NCBI GenBank assembly: GCA_965263185.1
Contig: OZ253588.1
Span: forward strand, 1,025,454 to 1,089,453
Source of the DNA: Dehalococcoidia bacterium
Lineage (GTDB): Bacteria > Chloroflexota > Dehalococcoidia > Lucifugimonadales > UBA2985
Direction: 5' to 3'
Length of the DNA: 64,000 bases
Shown one piece after another: positions 3,045 through 60,754 of the stretch; position 1 is the stretch's first letter, and the number at the start of each line of letters is the position of its first letter. Below the pieces are notes generated by a model. That model was not told the origin of the DNA and did not search any database. It worked only from the letters and a program-made list of their open reading frames with translations. A program made the translations under genes and the position numbers.

Positions 3045-3101
3045 CGCCCACATGGGCCGGGATGAAACAGCGCTTATCCGCTATTAGAGAAGAGGTGAAC
3101 C

Positions 3102-4439: not shown

Positions 4440-4567
4440 TCCTGTACAGTGGAGCCTCTGAACCGGCGCTCGATACTACGGAGCGCCGGATGAGGTTCTG
4501 CGCGGAGGACTAGCCTGCCTCTGGCAGGGTCGGTCGTGCTCCACCCGAAGAGGGTCAGAGGCGTTTC

Positions 4568-7368: not shown

Positions 7369-7403
7369 CGGCAACGCCGTTTCGCTGCCGCCCGCGTAGC
7401 TTC

Positions 7404-30104: not shown

Positions 30105-30106
30105 GC

Positions 30107-40442: not shown

Positions 40443-40880
40443 AAACATTACTTTTTAGCGGTCAGAATCTGCAGGGGTTTTCCGTGCCTGAAACGCCCGC
40501 TGTTTTCAGCCAACCTTTTTAGCGAATATATATCCGCGCGTGAGACGCAGTTTTCATCTCTACTCCGCGTTTCAAAGCCTACCCACCGCATGCGCTGTTC
40601 TCTGTAACAGTCGAAGTGTTGTCTTGCAGGTCAAAGGGAGTTGCAGGCTCAAACAATCCAACGGTGAAGACACCACAATAGGGCCTTTAGGAAGCTCATC
40701 AGACGTCCATCCAACCCGTGATCTATATGCTCTCGCAGTGTCCCAATTTTGCTGGTTGCCAACACTGGGTGGCAGTCTCTAGGCAATCAGAAATACTCGC
40801 GGCGGGAATCATTCTGATCCAAGATAGGAGAGAACTCTACTAAGTGCTTAGTCAGGTATCAATACTATTTCCATTCGGAA

Positions 40881-43409
40881 CTAATCCTCATAACCCAGCT
40901 CCTTTGCCCGTTGAAAGTCTTCGGCTGCTCCTTCTGCATCGCCCATCTTCTCTCTGGTCACGCCTCGAACCTGATATGCTATGGCACTTTTCGGTTCACT
41001 CTCAACCGAAGAGTTGAAATCGGCCAATGCCAAGGCAAATTCCCCCCTCGCCGCATGAGCGTAACCACGGAACCGGTAGACGAGCGAATTGTCGGGCGCA
41101 AGCCGAATTGTAATGTCGTAGTCGGCAATAGCCCTGTCGAAATCGAGCTTCTGGCGATACGCCATTCCTCTGCCAAAATAGGAGGGTATGTGTTCCGGAT
41201 CCAGCTTAAGAGCTTCGTTGTAATCGGCAATTGCCAAATCGTATTCGCCGTTGAATCGAAGGCAATCTCCTCTACATCGACGTGCGTCTACGTGGCTTGG
41301 TTCTAGTCGTAAAGCCTCGTCAAAGTCCGCGATGGCTAGTTCCAGCTCATCCCGTTCGCCATAAGCCATCCCGCGATGGTGGTAAGCCATGGCGTTGTTG
41401 GCACCAAGAAGAATCGCCCTTGTTGTATCGGAAACCACCCTATCAAAGTTGTTCATGTAACCATGGACAACCCCGCGCAATTGGTATGCAGCGGAATTGC
41501 CCGGGGTAAGCTTAATTGCTTCGTCCAGGTCTGAAATTGCTCGTACATTGTCTTCCTTTTCGAAGAAGGCCAATGCCCTGTACATGTATGCCGCGGCATT
41601 GTTGGGATTGCGCCTCAAGGAGGCACTGAGAGCAGCCATGTCTAGCTTGTCGCCCTTCTTCATGTCTAATGAGGGCAACTCCGCAATTGCCGCATTCACC
41701 AACTCTGATAGCTGTTCCAACTCTTCAGCGAATCCCATATGGCGCGCCATCTTGCTGTAGAGGTTCGACTTTGACCTGTCACCAGCCAGCAATCCGGTGA
41801 CGGCTGTGGCAACTACCACTGGTGGGGCGTCTGGATTCAACCTCAGGGCAGACTCGAAGGTTTCCAGAGATTCTTGGAACCTTCCCAATTGACGTAAGGC
41901 CACCGCCATTGCTTGGTAGTAGTATGCATCAAGGGAACCGCGTTCCGGGGCAACGCCTTGCAGATGCTCAACGGCTTCCCGTTCCCGGCCGGCCATGAGC
42001 AATATCCATCCGATTTCAGTCCAAGGAAGAAGCCAGTTTGGGTCCAACTTTGCGGCGAGCCAGCACTCCTCTAGACCTTCTTCGACCAAGGCCGCATCGC
42101 CTCTCTTGGCGCCTATGCCCCCCTTGACCGATCCCAAGGTGAAATGGTTTGCAGGGTCCAACAGGTCCAGTTCGGCCGCCTTGGTAACCTCGGCTAGAGC
42201 CTCGGGCATTTTCCCTTGTATTTGTAGCTCCATAGATCGCTCGTAGTGGGCGTAGGCTTCAGGTTTGCTTACATCCCAGCCCTTGAGAAGTCCACCTTCG
42301 GTTTCTTGGATCAGGGCATCAACTTCTCCCCGATGAACCTGATAGTTGACGGCTATCACCCTCCTTATCCAGTCCGAGCCCACCGCGACTAGGTCCTCTT
42401 TCCACTCACTATCCGACTCCCTCTCGGCCAATTCAGACAAGACCGGCTCTGAATACAGGGAGCCTGCACCATGAGCTAGTATGTCGGCGAAAGCAGCGTG
42501 GTGGGATTCCGTATCTAAGTGGACTTTTAAGCTGTCGTACACAAGAGTAGCGTAATTGCGCAAATGCTGAACTATCTCTGTGACGACTTCGGTTCCTATG
42601 TAGCCTGCCAGGGCAACGGCGATATCGCTGGCCCAATAGAGCCGTCTCAGTTCGCGGAGTACACGTGTGCGTTCGTGAGAGTCACCCTCCTTGGCTAATG
42701 CCTTGGCTATGTTCCTCAGGTTCTTACTCGATGGCCGCGAGCCCCGGTACACCCACGCTTCCACAGTGTTTTTGTCCACTACCATCTTACAGGAGAAATC
42801 CCAAAGAGAGGGGATTCCCGCTTCGGAGCGCATACTATCGAGATATTTGCCCCTGCGGTCAATTTCGACCCAGTCCAGAAAATTGAGAGCGATTGGTTCG
42901 GAACCGCTGAGGCGCATCTGAGCCGCGACTCTCAGCGCCAGGTCGACAGCAGCAAGCCTCGCATAGATCCTCCAAACGTTGGGTAAGTGGCTTGGGAACA
43001 CGCGCGGCATCCTGGGCCGAAGCAGAGATCTCAACCGGTCCCACTTCACCGCATGGTGATCGAGTATGGTGGTCAGCGCTTGTACAGTGGATGAAGCGCC
43101 ATCTCCATCGCTTGTACTTGTGCCCACCCCTTGTTCGACTAGGGTTTCCGCTATAGCCTTGATAATCTCAGTACGGCTGGACTCCTTCACTCTGTCTTCC
43201 AAATACCCTGAGAAATAGCGGCTGGCTGTCTTTGATTGGAGCTTTGGATGTTCTATACCCAAAGTCTTTACCAACTGCCCCAATATCTGGCCGCTGGTCG
43301 GCAGCTGCGGGGCAACTTCTCTTTCCAATACTTCGTCCGTACCTTCGCTGGTTTTGCTTTCCGACATTTCACTCCCTACGTGGTTCATTCTACCAGTCAT
43401 AGGAACCAC
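40881..43409 (-). CDS. HTH (XRE-like) + TPR repeat protein, coupled to pVip
   Basis: The C-terminal ~400 aa contain about 10 TPR units (e.g. AYMYRALAFFEKEDNVRAISDLDEAIKLTP, AMAYHHRGMAYGERDELELAIADFDEALRLEP, SYFGRGMAYRQKLDFDRAIADYDITIRLAP). The N-terminal half has an XRE-like stretch, VDKNTVEAWVYRGSRPSSKNLRNIAKALA. No P-loop. Candidate starts: 43409 (GTG), 43400, 43388. Confidence 0.75.
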   Translation of the reverse strand: MVPMTGRMNHVGSEMSESKTSEGTDEVLEREVAPQLPTSGQILGQLVKTLGIEHPKLQSKTASRYFSGYLEDRVKESSRTEIIKAIAETLVEQGVGTSTSDGDGASSTVQALTTILDHHAVKWDRLRSLLRPRMPRVFPSHLPNVWRIYARLAAVDLALRVAAQMRLSGSEPIALNFLDWVEIDRRGKYLDSMRSEAGIPSLWDFSCKMVVDKNTVEAWVYRGSRPSSKNLRNIAKALAKEGDSHERTRVLRELRRLYWASDIAVALAGYIGTEVVTEIVQHLRNYATLVYDSLKVHLDTESHHAAFADILAHGAGSLYSEPVLSELAERESDSEWKEDLVAVGSDWIRRVIAVNYQVHRGEVDALIQETEGGLLKGWDVSKPEAYAHYERSMELQIQGKMPEALAEVTKAAELDLLDPANHFTLGSVKGGIGAKRGDAALVEEGLEECWLAAKLDPNWLLPWTEIGWILLMAGREREAVEHLQGVAPERGSLDAYYYQAMAVALRQLGRFQESLETFESALRLNPDAPPVVVATAVTGLLAGDRSKSNLYSKMARHMGFAEELEQLSELVNAAIAELPSLDMKKGDKLDMAALSASLRRNPNNAAAYMYRALAFFEKEDNVRAISDLDEAIKLTPGNSAAYQLRGVVHGYMNNFDRVVSDTTRAILLGANNAMAYHHRGMAYGERDELELAIADFDEALRLEPSHVDARRCRGDCLRFNGEYDLAIADYNEALKLDPEHIPSYFGRGMAYRQKLDFDRAIADYDITIRLAPDNSLVYRFRGYAHAARGEFALALADFNSSVESEPKSAIAYQVRGVTREKMGDAEGAAEDFQRAKELGYED

Positions 43410-44259
43410 CTCTCGACAGGAATTTCTCAGGAGCTATCGAGATGTCACGGAGCGCCTCCTCTACTCCAACCTCCAGGATAGGTCGGCTGTAGATGTGAGT
43501 TCCGGAAACGTTGTCGAAGAACCTCCCAGCGGGGTCTACCATGACGTAGCTTCCCGTCATCAGGTCGTTGCTCTCCGGCACCACTACGATTCCAGTCATC
43601 TCGACTCGCCTGCACTGTTGGACGTACCGCTGAAATTCACCATCTGAAACTATATGCTCTCCAATTCCCGCGTCGTTCTGCCCCTTGACAGGGAGCACCT
43701 GGAAGAGCTTCCATCTCTCTGGGCGAGCCTTCACTATGAAATCGGTGAGGTCTTCCCCCAAGTTGCTTTGCGTCACCACGGTGTTGACCTTTATGCGAAC
43801 ACCGGATTGCTTGAGTATTTCGACTACACACAGGTAATCTTCTTTACTCATGGGGCCGTGTCTAGTAGTCCTGCCAATACCCACGAGTGTGTCCCTGTCC
43901 ACGGAATCAATGCTCAACGCAATCCAGGCGAGGCTTCCTTTGACGCTCTCCAGCCATTCCCCTGTAGTCCGGCTCCCATTGGTCACCACCGATGTGGTGA
44001 GTCCTAACTCCTTCGCCCGCCGGATCAGGTCAGGCAGCCAGGGACACAGGGTCGGCTCGCCACCGGCGAAGTTAATCTTTTGGAAGCCGGCCCCTGAAAG
44101 AGACTCTACAACTAGGATGCAATCCTCACGTCCGAGATGTCCCTTGGGCAGAAACTGCGGCTCAATATCCTGGAAGGTAGCGAAGCAGAACTTACATCTC
44201 ATATTGCAGGCCTTCCACAGGTGGTAGTTGACGGACGGAATCTCGTTGACTATGCTCAT
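43390..44259 (-). CDS. prokaryotic viperin (radical-SAM ddhNTP synthase homologue)
   Basis: SVNYHLWKACNMRCKFCF (CxxxCxxC), KINFAGGEP, RWKLFQVLPVKGQN, VPESNDLMTGSYVMVD, ILEVGVEEAL, FLSRGGSYDW. These are co-linear with the viperin/RSAD2 blocks as I recall them. ATG at 44259 follows AGGAGAGAA. The ORF is open to 44295. Confidence 0.85.
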   Translation of the reverse strand: MSIVNEIPSVNYHLWKACNMRCKFCFATFQDIEPQFLPKGHLGREDCILVVESLSGAGFQKINFAGGEPTLCPWLPDLIRRAKELGLTTSVVTNGSRTTGEWLESVKGSLAWIALSIDSVDRDTLVGIGRTTRHGPMSKEDYLCVVEILKQSGVRIKVNTVVTQSNLGEDLTDFIVKARPERWKLFQVLPVKGQNDAGIGEHIVSDGEFQRYVQQCRRVEMTGIVVVPESNDLMTGSYVMVDPAGRFFDNVSGTHIYSRPILEVGVEEALRDISIAPEKFLSRGGSYDW

Positions 44260-44462
44260 TTCTCTCCTCGGATATCTGTTGCTTTTGCACCGCATATCCC
44301 TATGGTATGGAGCCTATCCCCCGCTCACTACCCTACTTTGGTGGACAATTTGCATTTCGAACCCCCTATTTCTGTGATGAGGGGACGAGTTAATCGGGCC
44401 TCGCTACCGACTCACAGAGCGATCACGCGGGGATGTAGTCACGCTCGATTATGGCGTAGAAT

Positions 44463-47400
44463 ATGGCTATGCCAGTAACCACAACAAAGCTGACCACGGC
44501 AGTCGAGCAGTACTTCGCCGACCTCCGGCTCATACGGGCGTCCGGCGGCGCTACCGGTGAGCGGTCGTACTACCCGGCGCTGACCAACCTGCTTAACGCC
44601 GTAGGCAGCACTCTCAGGCCCCAGGTGTTCTGCGTAGGCGAGCTTGCCGAGCAGGGCGCGGGCCACCCCGACTTCGGCCTCTACGCGAGACGGCAGGTGC
44701 AGCGGGGAACTCCGCGCCCCGGCCAAGTCCCCGAACGCGGAGTCGTGGAGGTCAAGCCCGCCGGTGACGACGCCTGGTTGACGGCGGACAGCGACCAGGT
44801 GAGCCGCTACTGGGGTCGGTACAGGCTCGTGCTGGTCACCAACACCCGCGACTTCGTGCTGGTGGGCGAGGACGCGCAGGGCAACCCCGTTAAGCTGGAG
44901 ACCTTCCGTCTTGCCGACTCGGAGCAGGCGTTTCACTCCCGGCTGGAGACGCCCCGGTCCTTTGCCCGCGCCATGGGCGCGGGCCTGGGCGAGTACCTTT
45001 GCCGTGCGCTGTCCCACAGCGCGTCGATAGTCGAACCCAAGGACCTGGCATGGCTCATGGCGTCCTACGCGCGGGACGGCCTGGCGCGGGTGGAGGCTGC
45101 GGGCGACGCCCCATCCCTCCATGCCGTCCGCTCCGCCCTTGAGGAGGCGCTGGGCGTGCGCTTCGAGGGTGATAAGGGCGCGGCCTTCTTCCGCTCAACC
45201 CTGGTGCAGACCCTCTTCTACGGCGTCTTCTCCGCGTGGGTGCTCTGGGCCCGCCAGACGACGCCGCCCGCAGGCCCGTTCAACTGGCACGACGCCGTAT
45301 GGCACCTGAGAGCGCCCGTCCTCCGAGCCCTCTTCCAGCAGCTGTCCTCGCCCTCACAGCTACAGCCACTGGGACTGGTCGAGCTGCTGGACTGGACTGC
45401 GGCGGCCCTGGACCGTGTCGACCGCGGTGCCTTCTTCGACCGCTTCGACGCAGGCGAGGCCGTGCCGTACTTCTACGAGCCGTTCCTGGAGGCCTTCGAC
45501 CCCGAGCTTCGCAAGCAGCTTGGCGTCTGGTACACGCCCGCCGAGGTGGTGCGCTACATGGTCGCTCGCGTCGACATGGCGCTGAAGGAGGACCTGGGCA
45601 TCGCCGACGGCCTGGCGGCCGACAACGTCTACGTCCTTGACCCCTGCTGCGGCACCGGGACGTACCTTGCCGAGGTTCTGCGACGCATCGCCGCAAATCT
45701 CCAGGGCAAGGGCCTGGGCGCTCTCACCGGAGCGCAGGTGAAGCGGGCGGCCACCCAAAGGGTGTTCGGGTTCGAGATCATGCCTGCGCCCTTCGTCGTC
45801 TCCCATCTACAGGTTGGACTGACCATGCAGGCGCTGGACGCTCCCCTGTCCGATGACGAGACGGAGCGCGCCGGGGTGTACCTCACCAACGCCCTCACCG
45901 GCTGGGAGCCCAGCGTGCAGAAGCCGCTGCCCTTCCCGGAGCTGGAGGAGGAGCGCGACCGCGCCGATAGGGTGAAGCAGGATACGCCGGTCCTGGTCAT
46001 CCTGGGCAATCCGCCCTACAACGGCTATGCGGGCATGGCTGTCGAAGAAGAGCGGGAGCTCTCCACGGCCTATCGGACCACCAAGCAGGTGCGGCGTCCG
46101 GAGGGCCAGGGGCTGAACGACCTGTACGTGCGATTCTTCCGCATGGCAGAGCGTCGCATTGCCGAGAAGACGGGCCGGGGCGTGGTCTGCTTCATCTCCA
46201 ACTACTCCTGGCTGGACGGCCTCTCCTTCACGGGCATGAGGGAGCGCTACCTGGAGGCCTTTGACGTTATCCGTATAGACAACCTCAACGGCGACAAGTA
46301 CAAGACGGGCAAGACGACTCCCGGTGGCGCGCCGGACCCAAGCATCTTCTCCATGCCGGGCGATCCGGTGGGCATCCAGGTGGGTACAGCGATTACGACC
46401 CTGGTGCGCAAGGCTGACCACCAGCCCGCCAAAGAGGTCGGCTTCCGGCATCTGTGGGGACAGACAAAGCTCTCCGACCTGACGGCGACCGCCGAAGTGG
46501 GACCGGATGAGCTTTACGACAGCGTTGAGCCGAGCTTGCCTTTGGGGTTGCCGTTCGCTCCCGTCACTGTCAGCGCTCGATGGGCGGATTGGCCCGCGCT
46601 GCCAGACCTGTTCCAGATGTACTTCCCCGGGGTGCAGACGAGCAGAGACACGTTCCTATCGGACGTTGACATTGACCGGCTAGAGCGTCGTATAGCGGAC
46701 TACTTCAACCCTAACGTTAGCCATGAAGAGATTGCTCGGCGCTATCCTTCAGCGATGAACTCTACGGCAAACTATAAGGCTATTCCAGTTCGAGATGCAT
46801 TGCTTAACCGGGGCAACTCCGAAGACACAGGTGTCTTGCGCTTCGACTTTCGGCCATTTGACAAAAGATGGCTGTATTGGGATGGGCAACATGGCTTACT
46901 CAATCGTCCACGCCCTGAATACAAACCTCATGTATTCAAGGGGAACATAGCATTGGTTTCTCAACAGAAGCCTCGTCGAGAATGGTCTCCGCCCCAAGTG
47001 ATTGCTGCGTTGGGTTGCTACGACCTGATGGACCGTAATGCTTCATGCTTCCCTCTATGGCTCCACGAAGAGGGCATGGCACTTGACGGCGGCGGAGAGC
47101 AGCGCCGCCCCAACCTGTCGGACGCGGCCCAACGCTACCTTGACCGCCTAAGCCTGGGAGTGGAGGACCTGTTCCACCACGTCCTCGCCGTGCTGCACGA
47201 CCCATCCTACAGGGAGGCCAACGCCGGCGCCCTCAGGATGGAGTGGCCCCGCATCCCGCTGCCGGGCTGGCCGGACGGCGATACTTCGGGAGCGGCTGAA
47301 GAGCTGGCGGCATCGGCGGCGCGGGGACTGGAGCTTGCCGCGCTGCTTGACTCGGAGACGCCCGTTGCTGGCGTCACGACCGGCGCGCTGCGGTCGGAGA

Positions 47401-47810
47401 TGGCCGCGATCGCCGTGCCCTCAACCACGGACGGCGGCAACATGGCCGGTGACGACTTCTCGCTGACGGCTGGCTGGGGACACTTCGGGCAGGGCGAGGC
47501 TGTCATGCCGGGCCAGGGCAGAGCCGTCGAGCGCCCGTACACCGCGGAGGAGCGCGCCGCGCTGGGCACATCGGCAGACGCGCTTGGCAGCGCCACTTTC
47601 GACATCCACCTCAACGACCGCGCCTACTGGCGCAACGTCCCGTCGGCGGTCTGGAGCTACAAGCTCGGCGGATACCAGGTTCTCAAGAAGTGGCTCTCCT
47701 ACCGCGAGCGCGGCGTCCTGAACAGACCGCTGCGACCGGAGGAGGCGCAGCACTTCACGGACACCGCGAGGAGGATTGCGGGGATACTGCGGCTGGTGGG
47801 GGAGGGGTGA
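44463..47810 (+). CDS. single-chain PD-(D/E)xK + N6-adenine DNA methyltransferase + type-ISP-like C-terminal TRD (type IIG/IIL-like, no helicase)
   Basis: N-terminus: GHPDFGLY...GVVEVKP (D...ExK). Motif I VLDPCCGTGTYL. Motif IV ILGNPPYNGY. FISNYSWLDGLSFTGMRE block. C-terminus VWSYKLGGYQVLKKWLSYRE as in type ISP specificity domains. Confidence 0.75.
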   Translation: MAMPVTTTKLTTAVEQYFADLRLIRASGGATGERSYYPALTNLLNAVGSTLRPQVFCVGELAEQGAGHPDFGLYARRQVQRGTPRPGQVPERGVVEVKPAGDDAWLTADSDQVSRYWGRYRLVLVTNTRDFVLVGEDAQGNPVKLETFRLADSEQAFHSRLETPRSFARAMGAGLGEYLCRALSHSASIVEPKDLAWLMASYARDGLARVEAAGDAPSLHAVRSALEEALGVRFEGDKGAAFFRSTLVQTLFYGVFSAWVLWARQTTPPAGPFNWHDAVWHLRAPVLRALFQQLSSPSQLQPLGLVELLDWTAAALDRVDRGAFFDRFDAGEAVPYFYEPFLEAFDPELRKQLGVWYTPAEVVRYMVARVDMALKEDLGIADGLAADNVYVLDPCCGTGTYLAEVLRRIAANLQGKGLGALTGAQVKRAATQRVFGFEIMPAPFVVSHLQVGLTMQALDAPLSDDETERAGVYLTNALTGWEPSVQKPLPFPELEEERDRADRVKQDTPVLVILGNPPYNGYAGMAVEEERELSTAYRTTKQVRRPEGQGLNDLYVRFFRMAERRIAEKTGRGVVCFISNYSWLDGLSFTGMRERYLEAFDVIRIDNLNGDKYKTGKTTPGGAPDPSIFSMPGDPVGIQVGTAITTLVRKADHQPAKEVGFRHLWGQTKLSDLTATAEVGPDELYDSVEPSLPLGLPFAPVTVSARWADWPALPDLFQMYFPGVQTSRDTFLSDVDIDRLERRIADYFNPNVSHEEIARRYPSAMNSTANYKAIPVRDALLNRGNSEDTGVLRFDFRPFDKRWLYWDGQHGLLNRPRPEYKPHVFKGNIALVSQQKPRREWSPPQVIAALGCYDLMDRNASCFPLWLHEEGMALDGGGEQRRPNLSDAAQRYLDRLSLGVEDLFHHVLAVLHDPSYREANAGALRMEWPRIPLPGWPDGDTSGAAEELAASAARGLELAALLDSETPVAGVTTGALRSEMAAIAVPSTTDGGNMAGDDFSLTAGWGHFGQGEAVMPGQGRAVERPYTAEERAALGTSADALGSATFDIHLNDRAYWRNVPSAVWSYKLGGYQVLKKWLSYRERGVLNRPLRPEEAQHFTDTARRIAGILRLVGEG

Positions 47811-47815
47811 AACGC

Positions 47816-48895
47816 ATGCCCAAGTCTAGCGTCTTCTGGTTCGCGCTCTCAGCGGTAGTACTGCTGTCAGTGGGCCTTTGGCTCATTTGGTGGCAATGGG
47901 ACTGGTTGCACCCCGAAGCGTCGACAACCGTGTCGAACAGCGAAACACTTAGGAACGTAGGACTTCTGCTTGGAGGCGCACTCGCCTTTGTTTTTGCCGG
48001 GTGGCGTGCTTGGGTCGCGGAGCGCCAGGCCAGCGCAGCGCAGGCCCAGGCTGCTACGGCGCAGGCTCAGGCAGATATTGCGCAACAGCAAGTTGAAACC
48101 GCCCAGCAGGGCTTACTCAATGAGCGATATCAACGTGGGGCGGAAATGCTCGGCAGCCCGGTGCTCTCGGTGCGTCTGGGAGGAATTTATGCCCTGGGAC
48201 GTCTCGCTGAGGAATACTCAGAGCTATATCATGTGCAAGTCATGCAGATCTTCTGCGCGTTCGTGCGTAACCCGGTCGAGATAAACGGCATTAGGGAATT
48301 GACACCGATAGAAACTGGGCCGCCTCACGGTGTTCCACCGCCTCTAAGGGAAGATGTTCAGGCCATCATGGATGCAATCGGCGTTCGTAGTGGGAATCAT
48401 CTTGAGATTGAGGGAAAGGCTAGATTTCGCCTGAATCTGAGTGGCAGTGACCTAAGAGGAGCTACGCTTATAGGTGCGAATCTTACCAGCGCAATTTGGG
48501 AGTATCCTTCAGGGCTATCAACGGCGGAGTCCTTAGCCTATGACAAATACACAGACCTTTCTAGCGCAAAACTGTGCTCGGCAAGATTGGCGTTTGCGGA
48601 GTTGCAGAAGGCGATGCTAACTGGTGCATGCCTGTGCAATGCATGGATTGCCAGGACGGATTTCTCAGAGGCTCATTTCGCAGAAGCAAATCTGCACGGA
48701 GCACTTTCTTGGGGCCCAATCCTCTCAGGCGCTACCTTCTCAATTGGCATCCTGTCTGCGAAGGGTATAAGACAATGGGATTTAGATTCATGTGAGGCCG
48801 CGCCGGAAAAACTCCCAGTTTTAGCTGGGGTTCATGACGTTGGAACGGGTGCGCCCCTGGTGTGGAGTGGGAAATCGCTTATTGAGCAAAGTTAG
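47816..48895 (+). CDS. membrane-anchored pentapeptide-repeat protein
   Basis: ATG lies 5 nt after the methyltransferase stop. Two N-terminal TM helices, a Q/A coiled coil (AQAQAATAQAQADIAQQQVETAQQ), RLGGIYALGRLAEE helical repeats, then pentapeptide runs (NLSGSDLRGATLIGANLTSA, ARLAFAELQKAMLTGACLCNAWIARTDFSEAHFAEANLHGA). Confidence 0.75.
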   Translation: MPKSSVFWFALSAVVLLSVGLWLIWWQWDWLHPEASTTVSNSETLRNVGLLLGGALAFVFAGWRAWVAERQASAAQAQAATAQAQADIAQQQVETAQQGLLNERYQRGAEMLGSPVLSVRLGGIYALGRLAEEYSELYHVQVMQIFCAFVRNPVEINGIRELTPIETGPPHGVPPPLREDVQAIMDAIGVRSGNHLEIEGKARFRLNLSGSDLRGATLIGANLTSAIWEYPSGLSTAESLAYDKYTDLSSAKLCSARLAFAELQKAMLTGACLCNAWIARTDFSEAHFAEANLHGALSWGPILSGATFSIGILSAKGIRQWDLDSCEAAPEKLPVLAGVHDVGTGAPLVWSGKSLIEQS

Positions 48896-48937
48896 TCACT
48901 ATTCGAGCGAATGGGCACCCGTCCAGTTTCCATGTCC

Positions 48938-49333
48938 CTATGGGATTGACGGGTCGCTGGATATAGCCGCCAATGCCTGGTCGAAGGTCTTGATCTCCCG
49001 GACACCCCTCCGCTGGCAACTGGCCAGGTGGCAGAGGTCCCGGGCTTGCAGGCTGGGATACTGCTCGTGGAGCTGCCGAGCCAGGGCTACGTCGGCCTCT
49101 TCCAGCGGCCAAACTTCAACTGCGGCGCTCGCTATCAACTCTAGCGTCGCATCGAAGGTTTGCAACCTTCCGGTGGGCAGGTATACATGGGCCAGTTCCT
49201 GCATCACCTCTGCTGAAGTGCATAGGGGCGCGCCACTCCGGTTGGCTTCGACGAAGAAGCGCTGGGCCGTGGTCTGGAGCGCATGAGGGCGTCCTACCGC
49301 GTAGATGAAGACGTTTGTGTCTACGAATATCAC
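48938..49333 (-). CDS. vapC: PIN-domain toxin VapC
   Basis: MIFVDTNVFIY, EVMQEL, ARDLCHLA, FDQAL (four acidic PIN positions). 4-nt overlap with the upstream antitoxin. Confidence 0.85.
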   Translation of the reverse strand: MIFVDTNVFIYAVGRPHALQTTAQRFFVEANRSGAPLCTSAEVMQELAHVYLPTGRLQTFDATLELIASAAVEVWPLEEADVALARQLHEQYPSLQARDLCHLASCQRRGVREIKTFDQALAAISSDPSIP

Positions 49334-49605
49334 GTTGCAGCCACGCCTCGTCCACGTGACTCGCTCATGACGCGCAAGTGCTCACTCCAGTCCGGCTCCG
49401 TCTCCGGACCTTCCAACGCGGCGCATGACCTGAAGAATTCCTTCACGTCTTCCGGGGACTCGAACAGATTGACGCTCTGGCGCGTTTCAAGGCGCTCATG
49501 GGCGGCCGCTCGCAGCCAGGCGCTGAGGGACATACCCTCCCGCCTTGCTTGGTGAACAAAGCGGTCTCGGTCCTCGTCAGGCATTACCAACTGCACTCTG
49601 GCCAT
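49330..49605 (-). CDS. vapB: RHH/CopG-type antitoxin VapB
   Basis: 91 aa. The beta-strand-helix-helix N-terminus RVQLVMPDEDRDRFVHQARREGMSLSAWLRAAA is typical of ribbon-helix-helix antitoxins. Confidence 0.75.
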   Translation of the reverse strand: MARVQLVMPDEDRDRFVHQARREGMSLSAWLRAAAHERLETRQSVNLFESPEDVKEFFRSCAALEGPETEPDWSEHLRVMSESRGRGVAAT

Positions 49606-49894: not shown

Positions 49895-51450
49895 CTAGGA
49901 GTCTGTCCGAGAAACACGGTTGGCGAGTGGTTTGGGGTATAATGGGGCCAGTCCAGTAGCGGGGAGTTGTTGATGAGGAAGACCTACCTTCCCTACGAAC
50001 CCGACCAGCAGTTGCTGTTGCCGGCGGCATTGCAGGAGTGGCTGCCTGACGACCATCTGGCGTACTTCATATCCGACGTGGTGGACCAGTTGGACATATC
50101 GGAGGTCACCGCTCGCTACGAGCGGGAACGGCGTGGCGGGCCGCCGTATCATCCACGGATGATGGTCAAGGCGCTGCTGTATGGCTACTGCGTCGGGGTG
50201 GCGTCCTCACGCCGCATCGCCCAGCGTCTCCACGAGGACATCGCCTTCAGGGTGTTGGCGGCGAACAACACACCGGACTTCCGGACCATCTCCGACTTTC
50301 GCAAGGGTAATCTGGATGCGCTGTCGGGCCTGTTCGTACAGGTACTGGCGTTGTGCCAGAAGGCGGGACTGGTGAAGCTGGGGCACGTGGCGCTGGACGG
50401 CACGAAGGTCAAGGCCAACGCTTCCAAACACAAGGCGATGAGTTATGGACGGATGAAGGAGAGGGAAGCGGAGGTGGCGGAGTTGCTGGAGCGAGCCCGG
50501 GAAGTGGACGATGAGGAAGACCGGCGGTACGGCAAAGACAAGCGTGGAGATGAGTTGCCGGAGTAATTGGCCTTTCGAGAGGGTCGGTTGGAGAAGATAC
50601 GGGAAGCCATGGCGGCGCTGGAAGCCGAGGCGCAGGCTGAGGCCGAACGGGCCGAGGCCGAAGGTGGTAAGCGCCCGGGTGCGCCCGATGACAAGGCCCA
50701 GCGCAACTTCACCGATACCGAGTCGCGCATCATCCCCGCGCCTGGAGGAAAGGACTTCCTGCAAGCGTACAACTGTCAGGCGGTGGTGGACAGCGCTCAC
50801 CAGGTAATCGTGGCGGCGCGGGCCACCAACCGGACTTCGGATAAGCGACAGGCTGCGGCGATGATGGAGGAGACCATCGACAACGTCGGCGCAGTCCCCA
50901 GGGAAGTATCCGCCGATGCCGGCTACTACTCGGCAAAGGCGGTTGAAGGTCTCTACAGGCTGTGCGTGGACCCGTTGGTTGCGCCGGAGCAGACCTGCCA
51001 CGGCCGGGTTGTGCCACCTGCGCCCCGAGGACGCATACCCAGCCATCTGTCTTCCAGGGACCGGATGCGACGGAAGTTACAGACCAGGCGGGGTCGGCAG
51101 CGCTACGCTTTGCGGATGCAAACTGTGGAGCCGGTATTCGGCCAGATCAAGCAGGGCCGGGGGTTCCGGCAGTTCCTGCTGCGGGGACTGGAGAAGGTGA
51201 ACGGCGAATGGTCGCTGATCTGCACGGGCCACAACCTGCTCAAACTGTTCCGCTTTGGGGTCAATCTGCACAGGAAAGCGCGGGCCGATGGGCCAGCCCA
51301 ACGCATCAGGAACTTTTGCCGAGGTAGTGAGCACGGCGCTATTCGCAAAGCTATCTGGGGACTGGCCGGGGCAACCGGCACAATTAGTTGTCGCAATCCA
51401 TTGTCGCAAACCCGCAAGCGCCGTTAGACAATCCTCGGACGGGCTGCTAG
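49895..51450 (+). mobile_element. IS1182-family insertion sequence
   Basis: Imperfect terminal inverted repeats ctaggagtctgtccgagaa (49895-) and the reverse complement of ttctcggacgggctgctag-type sequence (-51450), about 16/20 matching. They enclose a single transposase reading frame. Confidence 0.65.
49967..51427 (+). pseudogene. IS1182-family DDE transposase interrupted by one in-frame TAA
   Basis: The two track ORFs (49967-50566, 50567-51427) are in the same frame, separated only by TAA at 50564-50566. N-terminus: YHPRMMVKALLYGYCVGVASSRRIAQRL...DFRTISDFRK. C-terminus: ADAGYYS...VEPVFGQIKQGRGFRQFLLRGLEKVNGEWSLICTGHNLLKL. Confidence 0.8.
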
Positions 51451-53620: not shown

Positions 53621-55328
53621 TCCCGAATCCACCGAAGGACACGGATGGGCGGCGTGAGGACCGGAGAAGGGGGATGAGAGAGCTACAGGGGAGATGGCCT
53701 GGGCTCGATTGGGGTAGATGGGAGGTCGGCGGAGGGACTTCAGTCACCGCACAGGCCCCCAATGGCCGTCTGCGGGAGCTGGGATGCGCGGGGGATGGCA
53801 AGAGAATAGGCAGCAGGGAACTCCCGCGGAGCTGGTTGGTGCGAGTTGGCGGGGACGTTGGGTCAGTGGCGGAGGGCGCCGTCAGGCTGGGAGTGGAATG
53901 GCTCGCAGCCGGGCCAGGGCGCGACTGAACTGGGTATCCCAGGGCCAGCGCCGGGGAAGATGCAGGGTCAATCGGCGTGCCGAGCGAGTGAGCCGTCCGG
54001 CCAAGGCGAAGACCCGTCGTCTGAGGGTCTTGGTGGTCACGATCTGCTCACCCAGGCCGATGCGGGCTGTCCAGCGGGCCAGGTTGTGTGCCATCACCTG
54101 TACCGCCAGCCAGGCTCCGTTGGCGGCGAAGCGGCCGGACGGCATGTGGTTCAGTCCGACACCGTACTTGAGGTCGCGTATCGCATTCTCGATCTCGGCG
54201 TGACGGCGATGATCAGCCTCCAGTTCGAGCATCTCCCCATCGCGGTCGGTGATGAAGCCGTGATAGCTGTAGGTGGCGAAGAGGGCCAACTGGGAACCGG
54301 GCGTGGGTTTCACCCGCCGGACGATGAGCCGCACCGGCGCGGCGTCGGGCTCACTCTGGAAGGGGATATAGGTGGTCTCTGCCACATCGGCGGCGCCGTC
54401 CATCCAGTAGGGAATGGGAGTCCAGTCCTCTTCTGGTATGGCCTCGATGACATTGTGCAGGCTTTTGTGCTGGCGGATGGTGATGGAGAAGCGGACATCC
54501 ATCTTGCGGCAGACGGATACCACGCTATGAGCGTAGAAGCCGCTGTCGGCCCGCATCGTGAGTTGTCCCCTGGCCCCGGCGTAGCGCACCCGCCCCACCG
54601 TCTCACGCAGGAAGTGGGCGGCGCCGCGGGCGGTGTTGGCCCGGCCCTCGCGCAGCCGGGCCATCAGCACGTCTCCGGTTCCGGCGGCGACGGCCAGCAG
54701 CGGGTGATAGCCCCGCTGACCGGTGTAACCATGGTGGCGCGCCCCTTCCTTGGCCAGTCCATAGGTCTCGCAGATGGTGGAGTCCAGGTCGATGGTCAGG
54801 GGCCCGTCGCCGGGTCCGGCCCCGGCAGCCCAGGCCCGTGCCAGCAACTCCCGGCTAACCCGGTCCAGTTGGCGGACATGGCCCCACCTGAAGCTGCGCA
54901 GGAAGGCGCCCAGGGTGGAGGGAGCCTTAGCCGTGAAACCGAGAACGCGGGCGGTCCCGCCGGCGCGTAGCACATCGGCGTCGTCGATGCAGTCGCCACC
55001 GGCCAACGCGGAGGCCACCAGCGTCATCATCTTGTCACCGGTGTTGGCTCTGCCTTTTGCATGGCCCAGGTCCAGGTGCCGGTCAACCAGTTGGGGCAGG
55101 CCAAGGCGCAGGGCCAGGGTGGACGGAAGAATCAGCCCGGCATTGGCCACCAGGCGGTGATCATCGAAGGCGATGCGGATGCGGTCGGGTTGGTGGCGTG
55201 GTAGCATCTATTGGGTGCTCCTTTTCCGGGACTGGTTTGCTGTTACAAAACCATTATCCCAGATTCAGAGGAGCACCCTTTGGCCACTTCAGGACGCTGA
55301 CCCGACGCCCTCCTTCGGTGGATTCGGG
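53621..55328 (-). mobile_element. IS1380-family insertion sequence, copy 1 (complete)
   Basis: Perfect 18-bp terminal inverted repeats CCCGAATCCACCGAAGGA (53622-53639, and reverse complement at 55311-55328). CTAA lies on both flanks (53617-53620 and 55329-55332). Confidence 0.85.
53882..55207 (-). CDS. IS1380-family DDE transposase
   Basis: 441 aa. DLDSTICETYG...GYTGQRGYHPLL, MRADSGFY, HAEIENAIRDLKYGVGLNHMPSGRFAANGAWL: the IS1380/DDE_Tnp_1-assoc pattern. Confidence 0.85.
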   Translation of the reverse strand: MLPRHQPDRIRIAFDDHRLVANAGLILPSTLALRLGLPQLVDRHLDLGHAKGRANTGDKMMTLVASALAGGDCIDDADVLRAGGTARVLGFTAKAPSTLGAFLRSFRWGHVRQLDRVSRELLARAWAAGAGPGDGPLTIDLDSTICETYGLAKEGARHHGYTGQRGYHPLLAVAAGTGDVLMARLREGRANTARGAAHFLRETVGRVRYAGARGQLTMRADSGFYAHSVVSVCRKMDVRFSITIRQHKSLHNVIEAIPEEDWTPIPYWMDGAADVAETTYIPFQSEPDAAPVRLIVRRVKPTPGSQLALFATYSYHGFITDRDGEMLELEADHRRHAEIENAIRDLKYGVGLNHMPSGRFAANGAWLAVQVMAHNLARWTARIGLGEQIVTTKTLRRRVFALAGRLTRSARRLTLHLPRRWPWDTQFSRALARLRAIPLPA

Positions 55329-56145: not shown

Positions 56146-57591
56146 TTGAAGGTAGCCTGTGTGCTCGTCACCCACCTGAGGGCCAAGGTCGAGCTGAGAC
56201 GACAGCCACACCTGAGAGACAGGCCCGCCGTCATCGTCGACCGCTCCGGGGGAAGGCCCCTGGTCGTCGACCGCTTCCCGTCCGCCACTGGGGTGGCTGC
56301 GGGTATGACCCTTGAGCAGGCCATGTCCCGCCACGTAAGCGCCATCGTCCTGGACGCGGACGAGCCATCCTACCGTGGCGCGTTCAACAGGATGCTCGCC
56401 TCTCTGCAGGGTGTCAGCGACCGGGTTGAGAGGTCGGACCTGGGCGCGGCCTACGTTCGCTTGGACGGCCTGGAGGACATGTACGGCGGCGAGGCCAGGC
56501 TGGTCACAGCCCTGCTGAACTGCGTCCCCCAGGACATGGGGCCGCGGGTGGGCGTTGCTGGCGCCAAGTTCCCCGCCCTGGTCGCGGCCCTGTCCAGCAC
56601 GCCCCTTGGGGCGACCAGGGTTCCCGCCGATGCCGTGTCCTTCCTCGCGCCCCGCTCCCTCGACCTCCTTCCCATCGCTTCGACGGTGAAGGCGGCCATG
56701 CGCCGCTTCGGCCTCCACACCATGGGAGAGGTGGCCGCCATGAGCAGGGACATGCTCGCGGAGCAGTTCGGGCCTGCCGGCGGTAGGGCATGGGACCTCT
56801 CCCACGGCATCGACAACAGCCCCCTCGTTCCCCTGAAGCATGAGGAGACCGTGGTCGAGCGCGCGTCCCTCCCCTTCTCATCCACATCCATGCCCCTCCT
56901 CCTGGCGGCGGTGGACACCCTCCTGAGGAGGGCCTACTCCCGACCCCGGATGCGGGGCCGGTACGCAGGCAGCGCATCCCTGGAGTGCGTGCTGGATCGG
57001 GCATCCCCCTGGGAGAAGTCGTTCCACTTTAAGCAGAGCGCGGGAAGCTCTGCGCGGGCGTACTTCATTATCAGCAACCGCCTGGAGACCGACCACCCAC
57101 AAGCGCCGGTGGAGGAGGTGTCCCTGGCCCTGTCTGACCTCACGGGAGAATCAGGAATTCAGATGGGACTTCTGCCGGACGTTCGTGATAGCAGGGAGCG
57201 GCGCCTTGTAGAGATGGAGAGGCAGCTCCAGGCCCGCACGGGAGGCGTCAGCGTCCTGCGCCGGGTGGCGAAGGTGGCCCCCGGGCACCCCGCTCCTGAG
57301 ATGCGCTCCGTGCAGGTCCCTGTGGACTCGCGGGGAAGAGAGGGTTTCAAGCCCATATCCACTCCTATTGCCATTGAGGTCCGGGAAGGGCCGAATGGAG
57401 AGCCTATAGAAGTGCGTCTTGGAGGGCGCTGGCTCTCTGTAGAGAGCGTCGAGGACGCGTGGAGCTTCGACCTGTGGTGGATGCCCCGTCCTCTTACCCG
57501 CACCTACTACCGGGTGAGCCGCGAGGACGGACGGCTGCTCACCATGTTCCTGGACCACATGGACGGCTGCTGGTACCGGCAAACGGCCTGA
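56146..57591 (+). CDS. imuB: ImuB-type Y-family polymerase-like protein
   Basis: 481 aa with Y-family fold blocks (VAGAKFPALVAA, LP.....A.RRFGLHTMGEVAAM) but no N-terminal D..FY..VE catalytic acidic motif. It lies directly upstream of dnaE2. TTG start after GGGAGGAG. Confidence 0.75.
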   Translation: MKVACVLVTHLRAKVELRRQPHLRDRPAVIVDRSGGRPLVVDRFPSATGVAAGMTLEQAMSRHVSAIVLDADEPSYRGAFNRMLASLQGVSDRVERSDLGAAYVRLDGLEDMYGGEARLVTALLNCVPQDMGPRVGVAGAKFPALVAALSSTPLGATRVPADAVSFLAPRSLDLLPIASTVKAAMRRFGLHTMGEVAAMSRDMLAEQFGPAGGRAWDLSHGIDNSPLVPLKHEETVVERASLPFSSTSMPLLLAAVDTLLRRAYSRPRMRGRYAGSASLECVLDRASPWEKSFHFKQSAGSSARAYFIISNRLETDHPQAPVEEVSLALSDLTGESGIQMGLLPDVRDSRERRLVEMERQLQARTGGVSVLRRVAKVAPGHPAPEMRSVQVPVDSRGREGFKPISTPIAIEVREGPNGEPIEVRLGGRWLSVESVEDAWSFDLWWMPRPLTRTYYRVSREDGRLLTMFLDHMDGCWYRQTA

Positions 57592-57607
57592 GACCTGGGA
57601 TCATGCC

Positions 57608-60600
57608 GTGACCGCCGGGTACGTCGAGCTTCACGCCAAGAGCTTCTACTCCTTCGGGATGGGAGCGTCCCACGTCCACGAGCTCCTGTCCAAGGCGGTG
57701 GAGTTGGGGTATCCCGCGCTGGCCCTCACCGACGCCAACCTGTGCGGGGCCCTGGAGTTCGCGCGCCTGGCCGGCAGCCTGGGCATACAGCCGATAACCG
57801 GCGGCGAACTGACCCTGATGGACGGCTCAAGGCTCGTGACATTGGCCAGGACACGGGAAGGGTACGCCAACATCTCCCGCCTCTTCACCCTGGCCAACTC
57901 AGTGGACCGCAGGAAGCCCAGGCTCGACCCTGCCCACCTGCGGGAGTACGCTGGCGGCGTTGTCCTGCTCACCGGCGGGCGGGGAGGGCCTCTCGCGAGG
58001 CTCCTGTCGGACGGCCGACGGAAGGAGGCCAGGAGGCTTCTCAGGGACTACCTGGAGTGGTACGGAGCGGGGTCGGTGTATGTGGAGCTGCAGCAGAACT
58101 TCCTACATGGGGACACGGAGCGCAACCGTGAGTCGGCGAGGCTAGCCGCTGAGGTCGGCGTTCCCGTTGTGGCGACCAACGACGCCCTCTACCACTCGCC
58201 GGAAAGGCACAGGCTCCAGCATGCCCTGGTCGCAGCCGGTCGAAACGCCACCATCGACCAAGCCCTGCCCTTCATCAGCCCCAACCACCACCTGCATCTG
58301 AAGTCGCCCGAGCGGATGGCCCATATCTTCCGGGACTGCCCGGAGGCCCTCGCCAACACCCTGAGGGTAGCTGAGCGTTGCTCCTTCAACCTGTCCACGG
58401 ACCTTGGCTACATCCTGCCCGATCCCGCCGTGCCGAAGGGGTACACCGCCGACACCTACCTGAGACGGCTTTGCATGGAGGCGGTGATGAGACGCTACGG
58501 CTCCATATCGAAGCGTGTGGAGGAGCGCCTGGAGGAGGAGTTCTGCTTGATAAGTAGGCACCACATGGCCGGCTTCCTCCTACTCTACCGGGAAATAGTC
58601 CTCATCGCCCAGGGTATCATGGAGGAGAGGGGGCTGACTCACCCGGAGACCCCTTTGGAGGAGAGGCCGCCCGGCAGGGGCCGGGGCTCCTCGGTGGCCT
58701 TGCTGACGGGTTACCTCATCGGCATAAGCCATGTGGATCCCCTGAGGTGGAACCTTACCCTGGAGCGCTTCATCTCCGAGGACACCTCACTCCTGCCAGA
58801 CATAGACCTGGACTTCCCTCGCGGCCTCAGGGACGAGCTGATACAGAGGGTACACCGTCGATTCGGGCCCGACCATGCTGTCCTGGTGGGGGCCATAGCC
58901 ACCTACTCGGTGAAGGGCATCATACAGGATATTGGCAAGGCCCTGGGGTTACCGAAGGAGGATCTCAGACTCCTCTCCAGACAGGTCCACTCCCACGACG
59001 GCGCGGACCTGCGGGAGGAGATGCTGGGGCTTCCCGCCTTCAGGGACCGGGTGGACGCCCCCGGCTGGCGTGACCTCCTGGAGATGGCGCCCCAGCTGAT
59101 GCACGCTCCCAGGAGCCTGGGGCAGCATGTCGGGGGCATGGTGCTGAGCCACGCCCCCATCTCCGGCATGGTCCCGGTGCGAGAGGGAGCCATGCCGGGC
59201 CGCTACATAATGGACTGGAACAAGGACAGCGTGGCCGACGCCAACTTTGCCAAGATAGACCTCCTCTCCCTGCCGGTGCTGGACCAGCTTGAGGAGGCGC
59301 TGGACCTGGTGGAGGGGCGCGAGGGGAAAAGGCCAGACCTGGCTCTTCTGGACCCGGAGGACTCCGAGGTGTACGACATGATCAACGAGGGCCGCTCCAA
59401 GGGCGTCTTCCTGCTCCAGTCTCCAGCCCAGCTGAAGATGGCGCAGCGCCTCAGGTCCCGATGCCTCCTGGACCTAGCCTACCAGGTGGCTCTCATACGG
59501 CCCGGCGTCGGCGTCCAGGGCAGCGCGGTCTCCCAGTTCGTGGAGCGGTACAGGCACGGGGTCACCTGGGAGTACGACCACCCACTGGAGAGGCGCGCCC
59601 TGGAGCGGGGCTGCGGCATAATCGTGTGGCAGGAGCAGGTGGTGCAGCTCATCATGGACGTGGCGGGTATGACGGCGGCCCAGGCCGATGAGATCAGGCG
59701 TGCCTTCTCCAGACCCAACGCCGACCACTTGGTCGCCATGCACCGGCAGAGGTTCATGGTTGCGGCTCTGGGGAACGGCGTGCCGGAGGAGGTCGCAGTA
59801 AAGATATTCGACAAGATCAACGGCCACTACATGTTCCCGGAGTCCCACTCCCACGCCTTCGCCGTCACCGCATACCAGGCCGCGTGGCTCAAGCGGTACC
59901 ACCCACTGGAGTTCTTTGTGACCCTGGTGAACAACCAGCCAATGGGCTTCTACCCCATGGAGACCATCAAGCAGGACGCTAGACGATTCGGCGTGGTCTT
60001 CTTCAACCCCTGCGTGAACCGCAGCCAGGCGAGGTGCATCCCCGACGGGGGCTATCTCCTGCTGGGCCTTGGCATCGTAAAGGACGTGGGCGAGGAGTCG
60101 GCCGGGGCGATAGTAGAGGAGAGGTATAGGCACGGCCCCTACACTACTCCGGCAGACCTGGTGAGGCGCACTGGTCTGAAGCCCCAGGCCGCGCTGTCGC
60201 TGGTCATGGCGGGCGCCTTCGACGGCCTCAACCCCAACCGACGCGAGGCGCTGTGGGAGGCCGGTCTATCCACAAGACCCTCCAGGAGCGGGCAGAGGGC
60301 TTTCCCGGCCTCGGTGGAGCAGGGCGTACCGGAGCTGGCCGACTTCACCTCCTTCGAAAGGATGGCGGGTGAGTACGGGGTCATGGGCATATACCCCAGG
60401 GGGCATCTTATGGAGTTCGTGAGGCCCCGGCTGAGCGCCGATGTGCTGCCGGCGTCTGCGGTGGAGAGCATGGATGAGGGCCGGGAGGTCATGGTGGCGG
60501 GCTGGCCCGTCGCCAGGCAGCATCCAAGGGGCAAGGAAGGGACGGTGTTCGTGACCATTGAGGATGAGACTGGGGACGCGCAGCTCATACTGTGGCCCAA

Positions 60601-60754
60601 GGTCTTCGCCCGATGCCGCAGGGAGCTGGGGAGCCAGGTGATACTGGTCCGGGGCGTGGTGTCCCAGTGGGACGGCACAACCAACATCGTAGTCTCGGAC
60701 GTGCAGCGTGTAGATACCGGCGTTCCCATGCCGGACGTTCACGATTGGCGTTGA
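57608..60754 (+). CDS. dnaE2: error-prone DNA polymerase III alpha paralogue DnaE2 (ImuC)
   Basis: PHP domain YVELHAKSFYSFGMGASHVHEL...LALTDANLCGA. Pol III alpha core IDLDFP, GMHAAG-type region, and a C-terminal OB domain. 1048 aa, the typical DnaE2 size, and paired with imuB. Confidence 0.85.
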   Translation: MTAGYVELHAKSFYSFGMGASHVHELLSKAVELGYPALALTDANLCGALEFARLAGSLGIQPITGGELTLMDGSRLVTLARTREGYANISRLFTLANSVDRRKPRLDPAHLREYAGGVVLLTGGRGGPLARLLSDGRRKEARRLLRDYLEWYGAGSVYVELQQNFLHGDTERNRESARLAAEVGVPVVATNDALYHSPERHRLQHALVAAGRNATIDQALPFISPNHHLHLKSPERMAHIFRDCPEALANTLRVAERCSFNLSTDLGYILPDPAVPKGYTADTYLRRLCMEAVMRRYGSISKRVEERLEEEFCLISRHHMAGFLLLYREIVLIAQGIMEERGLTHPETPLEERPPGRGRGSSVALLTGYLIGISHVDPLRWNLTLERFISEDTSLLPDIDLDFPRGLRDELIQRVHRRFGPDHAVLVGAIATYSVKGIIQDIGKALGLPKEDLRLLSRQVHSHDGADLREEMLGLPAFRDRVDAPGWRDLLEMAPQLMHAPRSLGQHVGGMVLSHAPISGMVPVREGAMPGRYIMDWNKDSVADANFAKIDLLSLPVLDQLEEALDLVEGREGKRPDLALLDPEDSEVYDMINEGRSKGVFLLQSPAQLKMAQRLRSRCLLDLAYQVALIRPGVGVQGSAVSQFVERYRHGVTWEYDHPLERRALERGCGIIVWQEQVVQLIMDVAGMTAAQADEIRRAFSRPNADHLVAMHRQRFMVAALGNGVPEEVAVKIFDKINGHYMFPESHSHAFAVTAYQAAWLKRYHPLEFFVTLVNNQPMGFYPMETIKQDARRFGVVFFNPCVNRSQARCIPDGGYLLLGLGIVKDVGEESAGAIVEERYRHGPYTTPADLVRRTGLKPQAALSLVMAGAFDGLNPNRREALWEAGLSTRPSRSGQRAFPASVEQGVPELADFTSFERMAGEYGVMGIYPRGHLMEFVRPRLSADVLPASAVESMDEGREVMVAGWPVARQHPRGKEGTVFVTIEDETGDAQLILWPKVFARCRRELGSQVILVRGVVSQWDGTTNIVVSDVQRVDTGVPMPDVHDWR

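Follow-up and report, generated by a model that had tools for sequence, protein, structure and literature searches.

A probable DrdV-like restriction–modification enzyme of Type IIL, made as one chain and lacking an ATPase motor, in a Dehalococcoidia defence island

A 64,000-nucleotide stretch of a Dehalococcoidia bacterium genome (contig OZ253588.1, positions 1,025,454–1,089,453; the whole stretch is referred to here as the window) contains a real open reading frame (ORF) for a protein of 1115 amino acids, located between a divergent viperin gene and a pentapeptide-repeat gene (Table 1). We assign this protein, with a probability of about 0.85, to the self-contained, ATP-independent restriction–modification (RM) enzymes of Type IIL (also Type IIG/IIS), as a single polypeptide resembling DrdV. 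From its N- to its C-terminus, it is composed of a PD-(D/E)xK nuclease, a helical connector, a γ-class N6-adenine methyltransferase, and a target recognition domain (TRD) like that of Type ISP enzymes. This layout is already known, being the described architecture of DrdV, and the activity of the protein, its site, its cut distance, and its need for multiple sites are predicted by analogy with DrdV. The protein adds a further representative to a known class of enzymes, and annotation pipelines already detect its family.

The preliminary description of this DNA had divided the protein into PD-(D/E)xK, γ-class N6-methyladenine (m6A) methyltransferase, and Type ISP TRD parts, and Pfam, PADLOC, and AlphaFold2 (AF2) models searched with Foldseek agree with this division. 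The motifs quoted there occur at residues 67–74 (GHPDFGLY), 93–99 (GVVEVKP), 391–402 (VLDPCCGTGTYL), 516–519 (NPPY), and 1064–1082 (WSYKLGGYQVLKKWLSYRE). Pfam matches are to Type_ISP_C (residues 715–1083, E = 3e-46), N6_Mtase, and Eco57I. Methyltransferase motif I (DPCCGTG, residues 393–399) precedes motif IV (NPPY), and the TRD is C-terminal to both. Two REBASE-derived REase_MTase_IIG profiles of PADLOC match residues 15–934 (PDLC03631, E = 2e-77) and 16–523 (PDLC03610, E = 3e-89); a recognized Type IIG family thus already includes the N-terminus. A regular-expression scan of the whole protein detected neither a Walker A ([GA]x4GK[ST]) nor a DE[x][DH] motif, and Pfam detected no helicase domain in it, in agreement with the earlier claim that the enzyme is motor-less.

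The top match by sequence in the Protein Data Bank (PDB) was DrdV (7lo5, 1029 amino acids; labeled ‘cryoEM structure DrdV-DNA complex’ in the fold-search library), which scored E = 1e-37 when the single protein was the query and E = 7e-69 when a family profile built from 38 diverse relatives was used. LlaGI and LlaBIII came next, through their methyltransferase and TRD only. The single-protein search of the PDB reached the N-terminus of no structure, and the family profile gave a non-significant, collinear match to the N-terminus of DrdV, pairing E25 and D64 of DrdV with E33 and D70. Because sequence searches reached no structure’s N-terminus, the nuclease was modeled separately (residues 1–170; predicted local distance difference test score (pLDDT) 89.5, predicted TM score (pTM) 0.84). 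In this model, secondary structure elements are ordered α-α-β-β-β-α-β. The second helix carries E33, β2 starts at P69-D70, and β3 contains E96-x-K98, which is the canonical active-site position. The catalytic residues of DrdV are E25, D64, E79, and K81, and mutation of K81 abolishes catalysis (bioRxiv 10.1101/2021.01.06.425610); these residues correspond to E33, D70, E96, and K98 in the protein studied here. Foldseek matches to the N-terminal model at E < 1e-3 were to the DrdV endonuclease domain only, which occupied the top seven places with seven chains (best E = 1.7e-5, probability 1.00, TM-score 0.69 on an isolated domain chain). Lower-ranking, weak matches comprised a different putative restriction endonuclease and the nuclease domains of HsdR. 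The N-terminus, earlier proposed to be nuclease-like from its motif, thus models as a nuclease fold.

The full-length AF2 model, based on a 61-sequence alignment, had a pLDDT of 77.5 and a pTM of 0.72. DrdV was again the best Foldseek match (E = 1e-31), with ~1200 aligned columns that cover essentially the whole of its 1016-residue chain. It was followed by LlaBIII (6e-25), LlaGI (2e-23), BpuSI (2e-10), PglX (3e-9, rank 12), and MmeI (1e-7, rank 41). The putative catalytic residues are strongly conserved, and neither of two outcomes that would have counted against the earlier reading, a non-nuclease fold or D/E/K residues without conservation, was observed. E33, D70, E96, and K98 of the nuclease and D393, G397, and N516–Y519 of the methyltransferase are invariant in 118 close sequences and 92–100% conserved in 38 diverse full-length representatives (38–64% identity), and the catalytic residues are invariant or nearly so in the 61-sequence mixed alignment, in which residues 1069–1081 are also invariant. 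As judged by column entropy among close homologues, the nuclease domain is almost as constrained as the methyltransferase. The protein has, then, the features expected of a DrdV-like Type IIL enzyme: a nuclease active site, a helical connector, the methyltransferase motif order, and a homologous TRD, without an ATPase or partner genes.

Several observations weigh against this assignment. Identity to DrdV is ~20%, and the two nuclease domains are not detectably alike by sequence (independent E-value 440). The spacing between β2 and β3 is longer (D70-x25-E96, as compared to D64-x14-E79 in DrdV), the protein is 86 residues longer than DrdV, and within the TRD, residues 913–948 have AF2 pLDDT values below 50. 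The longer spacing and the 86 extra residues mean that oligomerization geometry and cut distance may differ from those of DrdV.

DrdV (a Type IIL/IIG enzyme of Deinococcus; PDB 7LO5/7LVV) has the identical four-part order and also lacks an ATPase, with the nuclease likeness existing at the level of fold only. A relationship to Type ISP enzymes has already been noted for DrdV (bioRxiv 10.1101/2021.01.06.425610). LlaGI and LlaBIII, which are of Type ISP, are likewise single polypeptides and have a homologous methyltransferase and TRD (Type_ISP_C; profile E = 6e-57 and 1e-54), but these carry an Mrr-like nuclease, a RecA-like superfamily 2 (SF2) ATPase of ~500 amino acids, and a coupler, and cut after ATP-driven translocation and collision. 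The protein studied here has the Type_ISP_C-type TRD and the γ-class methyltransferase and lacks the SF2 ATPase motor and the coupler. The MmeI family and BpuSI (Type IIL/IIG; PDB 5HR4, 3S1S) follow equal functional logic and have the same domain order, but belong to separate sequence families. Of the Pfam models specific to MmeI (MmeI_N, _hel, _Mtase, _TRD, and _C), MmeI_Mtase alone matched, and its 18.1 bits fall below the cut-off of 27. The N-terminal PD-ExK motif of MmeI presumably likewise starts with D70. The comparison drawn in the preliminary description, of an MmeI-like Type IIG/IIL enzyme on a Type ISP chassis, was apt, and DrdV is the described instance of it. PglX/BrxX of BREX systems (PDB 8C45, 9EWZ) has a related γ-class methyltransferase and TRD scaffold, but it lacks a nuclease domain and acts together with BrxA, BrxB, BrxC, PglZ, and BrxL, none of whose genes is present here.

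By analogy with DrdV (bioRxiv 10.1101/2021.01.06.425610), the cleft between the methyltransferase and the TRD would bind a short asymmetric site and flip out a single adenine. On host DNA, this adenine would be methylated on one strand, protecting host sites. Unmodified DNA with multiple sites would recruit further site-bound molecules, and two nuclease domains would dimerize on the partner’s DNA and cut at a fixed distance without ATP.

Variation in the protein is concentrated in the first half of the TRD. Among 117 homologues (76–89% identity), mean column entropy is 0.77–1.74 bits at residues ~651–880, as compared to 0.07–0.67 bits in the methyltransferase. The TRD of DrdV contacts bases through N673, R721, Y764, D803, and K807 (bioRxiv 10.1101/2021.01.06.425610), and pairwise alignment to the PDB sequence maps these to S727, A773, R815, D854, and R858. 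Four of the contact-equivalent columns are at the 84th–94th percentile of variability, with S/N/G/K, R/E/D, D/N/H/K, and R/G/W/S/F as their residues. Three paralogues on one Dehalococcoidia chromosome (L001, L004, and L008) are 89–97% identical in the methyltransferase and 52–59% identical in the variable TRD segment. A corresponding pattern was seen in contig depth from four metagenome runs, in which the locus is present as contigs of unspecified library type. The conserved parts of the gene (window positions 44513–46516 and 47018–48019) had depths of 1000–5000, about 100 times those of the genome flanks (4–50), while the TRD bin at 46517–47017 had a depth of just 6–27. These data indicate that the family exists in many copies in the community, each with its own TRD. 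Because variation concentrates at the TRD positions with which DrdV contacts and reads its bases, the recognition sequence of the enzyme probably differs from those of its close relatives, with specificities in the family probably diversifying. A natural series of near-identical enzymes varying at the equivalents of DrdV contacts is a resource for specificity engineering, and TRD sequences paired with long-read methylomes could yield a recognition code for the DrdV/Type ISP TRD. In the MmeI family, specificity shifts when a few TRD contact residues change, and such series have served to decode and re-engineer specificity.

The family is large and widespread. At least 2036 relatives of the N-terminal 335 residues were found at E ≤ 0.001 (50%-identity cluster representatives), and the word-indexed protein searches, which scored the first 8000 candidates, both reached that number, so that family sizes are lower bounds, and at least 538 loci in species-representative genomes encode a relative. 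Genome-locus comparisons cover the best 80 of these 538 or more loci, with 71–85% full-length identity. Hosts of these 80 loci are Dehalococcoidia and other Chloroflexota, Binatia, Bryobacterales and other Acidobacteriota, Latescibacterota, ‘Entotheonella’, Alphaproteobacteria, Gammaproteobacteria, Gemmatimonadota, and Nitrospirales. The RM family is found in metagenome-assembled genomes from eight phyla or more, and a chromosome may have as many as three copies (OZ244718.1). DNA similarity to related loci usually stops at the stop codon of the RM gene and starts no earlier than position 44426, at most 37 bp upstream of the gene start. The gene appears to pass from genome to genome on its own, accompanied by at most ~40 bp of upstream DNA, and to land in defence islands.

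One record is titled ‘Spongia_Bin9’, and sponge metagenome projects (PMC5099237, PMC5649159) are the source of contigs with the prefixes MKWU, LXNI, and LXNJ. These contigs were found through the pentapeptide-repeat profile described below, and an RM homologue is also present on some of them. Both studies reported that RM systems are enriched in sponge symbionts. The family has apparently spread extensively by horizontal transfer within one community type, seemingly sponge microbiomes, and we infer a sponge origin for the window itself. Spread across phyla together with high copy number in one type of community makes the family useful for tracing horizontal gene flow between symbionts that live side by side. 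In two loci (L012 and L015), the RM frame ends ~800 bp early, at ~10541 and ~10496, respectively, with tblastn similarity extending as far as the C-terminus. The early end reflects either a frameshift in a pseudogene or an indel error of long-read assembly.

The true start of the gene is likely the second ATG, at 44469, giving a protein of 1113 amino acids that begins MPVTT. This start is favored because a database copy (P0001, 1113 amino acids) and homologues (MP.TT) begin there. A TAGAAT hexamer lies 6 nt 5' of this ATG and recurs at equal spacing in L001, L002, L004, L008, and L100, and the genes upstream of the first four are unrelated. This arrangement suggests that TAGAAT is a compact promoter belonging to the RM gene itself, and its retention in the nearest relatives suggests a possible leaderless transcript and a start at 44469 rather than 44463.

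The enzyme could act together with its downstream neighbor. The pentapeptide-repeat protein encoded there has 359 amino acids and begins with two hydrophobic (transmembrane) helices, followed by a coiled coil rich in Q/A, ‘LLNERYQRGAEMLG...VRLGGIYAL’ as a conserved block, pentapeptide repeats that vary in number, and a conserved ‘GLTQ.QLD...PPKL.GVLDA.TGK.L.W.G’ tail. Its gene starts only 6 nt after the RM stop codon. Full-length homologues (32–47% identical) lie directly 3' of the RM gene in 16 of the 80 loci (L002, L006, L009, L010, L014, L017, L019, L025, L027, L028, L035, L048, L057, L059, L073, and L079; start and stop codons overlap as ATGA in several of them), and in three of the eight nearest metagenomic relatives (L100, L105, and L107; the eight are 87–94% identical). 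The two genes might on these grounds form a functional two-gene cassette, with the pentapeptide protein as a possible DNA mimic at the cytoplasmic face of the membrane that tethers, restrains, or licenses the nuclease. We regard such a cassette as unlikely, since some 75–80% of RM loci lack the pentapeptide gene, pentapeptide homologues also occur without the RM gene beside other methylases and helicases, and a DUF4238 gene fills the same slot in otherwise similar contexts. Moreover, GC content at third codon positions (GC3) is 0.54 for the pentapeptide gene and 0.81 for the RM gene. The pentapeptide proteins are 32–47% identical where the RM proteins are 72–89% identical, which argues against tight co-evolution. 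PADLOC has no match for the pentapeptide protein, and literature searches on pentapeptide-repeat proteins tied to RM or defence found nothing relevant.

A profile scan of metagenomes identified 19 loci encoding pentapeptide homologues. Among those with enough flanking DNA, an RM homologue is directly upstream in L090/L091 and L092 only, which is in keeping with a cassette at these loci and led us to reject the pentapeptide protein as an exclusive partner of the RM enzyme; in L099 an RM N-terminus lies just downstream. The remaining loci adjoin an N6_N4 methylase, HsdM, UvrD-like or AAA_30 helicases, or a trypsin-like protease. The pentapeptide gene looks like a recurrent, non-obligatory accessory or defence-island gene. 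As a recurrent membrane neighbor encoded by a translationally coupled gene, its product is a candidate accessory; that its repeat domain, predicted to be cytoplasmic, acts as a DNA-mimicking β-helix that holds the enzyme at the membrane or damps the nuclease is a tentative proposal. L101 and L107 share a common wider context, with RecQ upstream and, downstream, a PIN/ribbon-helix-helix (RHH) pair followed by a giant helicase. They differ directly after the RM gene, where L101 has DUF4238 (7201–8049) and L107 has the pentapeptide gene (7339–8469), which suggests that this slot is an exchangeable accessory position.

The upstream neighbor (43390–44295, minus strand) is a prokaryotic viperin (pVip), with 305 bits to NF038283 (viperin_w_prok; cut-off 180), a PADLOC pVip match at E = 4e-88, and the radical-SAM CxxxCxxC motif (CNMRCKFC). 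It probably starts with the ATG at 44259, which has GAGGAG 5 nt upstream. This leaves 203 bp (44260–44462) between two divergent genes, and the preliminary description had proposed that this region is a shared promoter through which the RM gene and the pVip operon are co-regulated as a two-arm defence module. The arrangement does recur in the contig of the closest relative (P0002, 89%; L100), in which pVip is 83%, the RM protein 89%, and the intergenic DNA ~84% identical with a 25-nt indel, but shared descent of a single island explains this equally well. In none of the 80 loci from many phyla was a pVip homologue found within 8 kb of the RM gene, nor was one found beside the seven other nearest relatives, whose neighbors are RecQ or other helicases, PIN toxins, ThsB-TIR, AIPR, or recombinase genes. 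Over the related loci as a whole, viperin adjoins the RM gene in 1 of 87. Flanking-ORF clustering of the 80 loci likewise revealed no widely conserved neighbor, the downstream pentapeptide gene being present in a minority. GC3 is 0.66 for pVip and 0.58 for the tetratricopeptide repeat (TPR) gene coupled to it, as compared to 0.81 for the RM gene and 0.81–0.86 for housekeeping genes, indicating separate histories. The conserved RM parts have ~100 times the metagenome depth of pVip, and the TAGAAT hexamer travels at fixed spacing with the RM gene into unrelated contexts. A search of the intergenic region for operators found only weak, imperfect inverted repeats of 13–17 nt and chance-level quality, and a sigma-70 scan of 40500–49500 found 6 sites, not above the 3.2 ± 2.1 expected from shuffled sequence. 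We therefore do not retain the co-regulated module, which is quite improbable given a pairing in none of 80 loci and one of eight nearest relatives, differing GC3, and shared DNA that ends within 37 bp of the gene. The viperin is best read as a defence-island neighbor rather than a partner, in one island common to two close lineages.

The viperin gene is translationally coupled to a gene for an 842-amino acid protein (40881–43409, minus strand), whose ATG (‘MTGRMNH’) overlaps the last viperin codons. The C-terminal half of this protein consists of TPR repeats, and its N-terminal ~430 residues have no Pfam or PADLOC match. The best PADLOC viperin profile is of the kinase-fusion type, yet no nucleotide kinase gene is adjacent.

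As to the type of enzyme, single-chain RM genes sometimes decay to methyltransferase-only forms, and the protein might by this reasoning be an orphan or regulatory m6A methyltransferase with a dead nuclease. Nothing specific to the protein favors this, and with all four active-site residues intact, invariant among close relatives and almost invariant among distant relatives, and with a nuclease domain constrained almost as strongly as the methyltransferase, it is very unlikely. Members of the family are named ‘type ISP restriction/modification enzyme’ or ‘N-6 DNA methylase’ by NCBI (e.g., P0274, P0298, and P0321; ~1150 amino acids). The former name apparently rests on the Type_ISP_C domain and is misleading for a motor-less family because the defining ATPase is absent; literature searches on PF18135/Type_ISP_C found nothing relevant. 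A true Type ISP enzyme with its translocase in trans, or a PglX-like protein that supplies the methyltransferase subunit to a system of several genes, such as BREX, would agree with this name, with the homology to LlaGI and LlaBIII, and with the weak similarity to PglX (PADLOC PglX profile E = 1e-5; Foldseek as above), but is extremely unlikely given the absence of ATPase domain and motifs, the lack of a helicase or BREX gene conserved beside the RM gene in the 80 loci or adjacent to it in the window (brxA, brxB, brxC, pglZ, and brxL are missing among neighbors that comprise pVip, TPR, pentapeptide-repeat, and IS element genes), a nuclease that matches that of DrdV, and a chain that aligns with DrdV end to end.

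Table 1. Features of the RM gene and its surroundings, in window coordinates.
Feature	Coordinates	Strand	Basis or remark
Single-chain Type IIL/IIG RM gene (probable)	44463–47810	+	ORF; PADLOC REase_MTase_IIG profiles; DrdV top PDB match by sequence and fold
TAGAAT, -10-like hexamer	44457–44462	+	Candidate promoter, probably belonging to the RM gene
PD-(D/E)xK endonuclease domain, residues 1–165, catalytic E33/D70/E96/K98	44463–44957	+	AF2 model, Foldseek, conservation
Helical connector, residues 166–335	44958–45467	+	AF2 all-helical H164–H353; collinear with DrdV, which has the same element
γ-class methyltransferase, residues 336–650	45468–46412	+	Pfam N6_Mtase, Eco57I; aligned to DrdV, LlaGI, LlaBIII
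Hypervariable TRD half, residues 651–880, including S727/A773/R815/D854/R858	46413–47102	+	Entropy, paralogues, depth
Conserved C-terminal TRD part, residues 881–1115, including GGYQVLKKWLSYRE, and stop codon	47103–47810	+	Type_ISP_C; alignment to DrdV C-terminus
Pentapeptide-repeat gene, possible accessory	47816–48895	+	Starts 6 nt after RM stop; Pfam Pentapeptide E = 4e-12
Insertion sequence (IS) element, split into DUF772 ORF and DDE_Tnp_1 ORF	49967–51427	+	Bounds defence island on the right
HEC-03 candidate defence pair	29607–31507	-	PADLOC HEC-03B E = 5e-129 (AAA_15/AAA_21 + DUF3696 ATPase), HEC-03A E = 2e-41
Second IS transposase	53882–55207	-	
ImuB-like (IMS family) gene, then DnaE2-type error-prone DNA polymerase III alpha gene; mutagenesis cassette	56146–60754	+	

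The local island extends over ~39–51.5 kb of the window and contains two ORFs without assignment, the TPR and pVip genes on the minus strand, the RM and pentapeptide genes on the plus strand, and the first IS element. It is flanked by housekeeping genes, namely GH15, NadA, and MiaB-like radical SAM genes at one end and an SMP-30-like gene at the other. Metagenome contig depth over the IS element reaches ~20,000, and this element is therefore extremely abundant in the source community.

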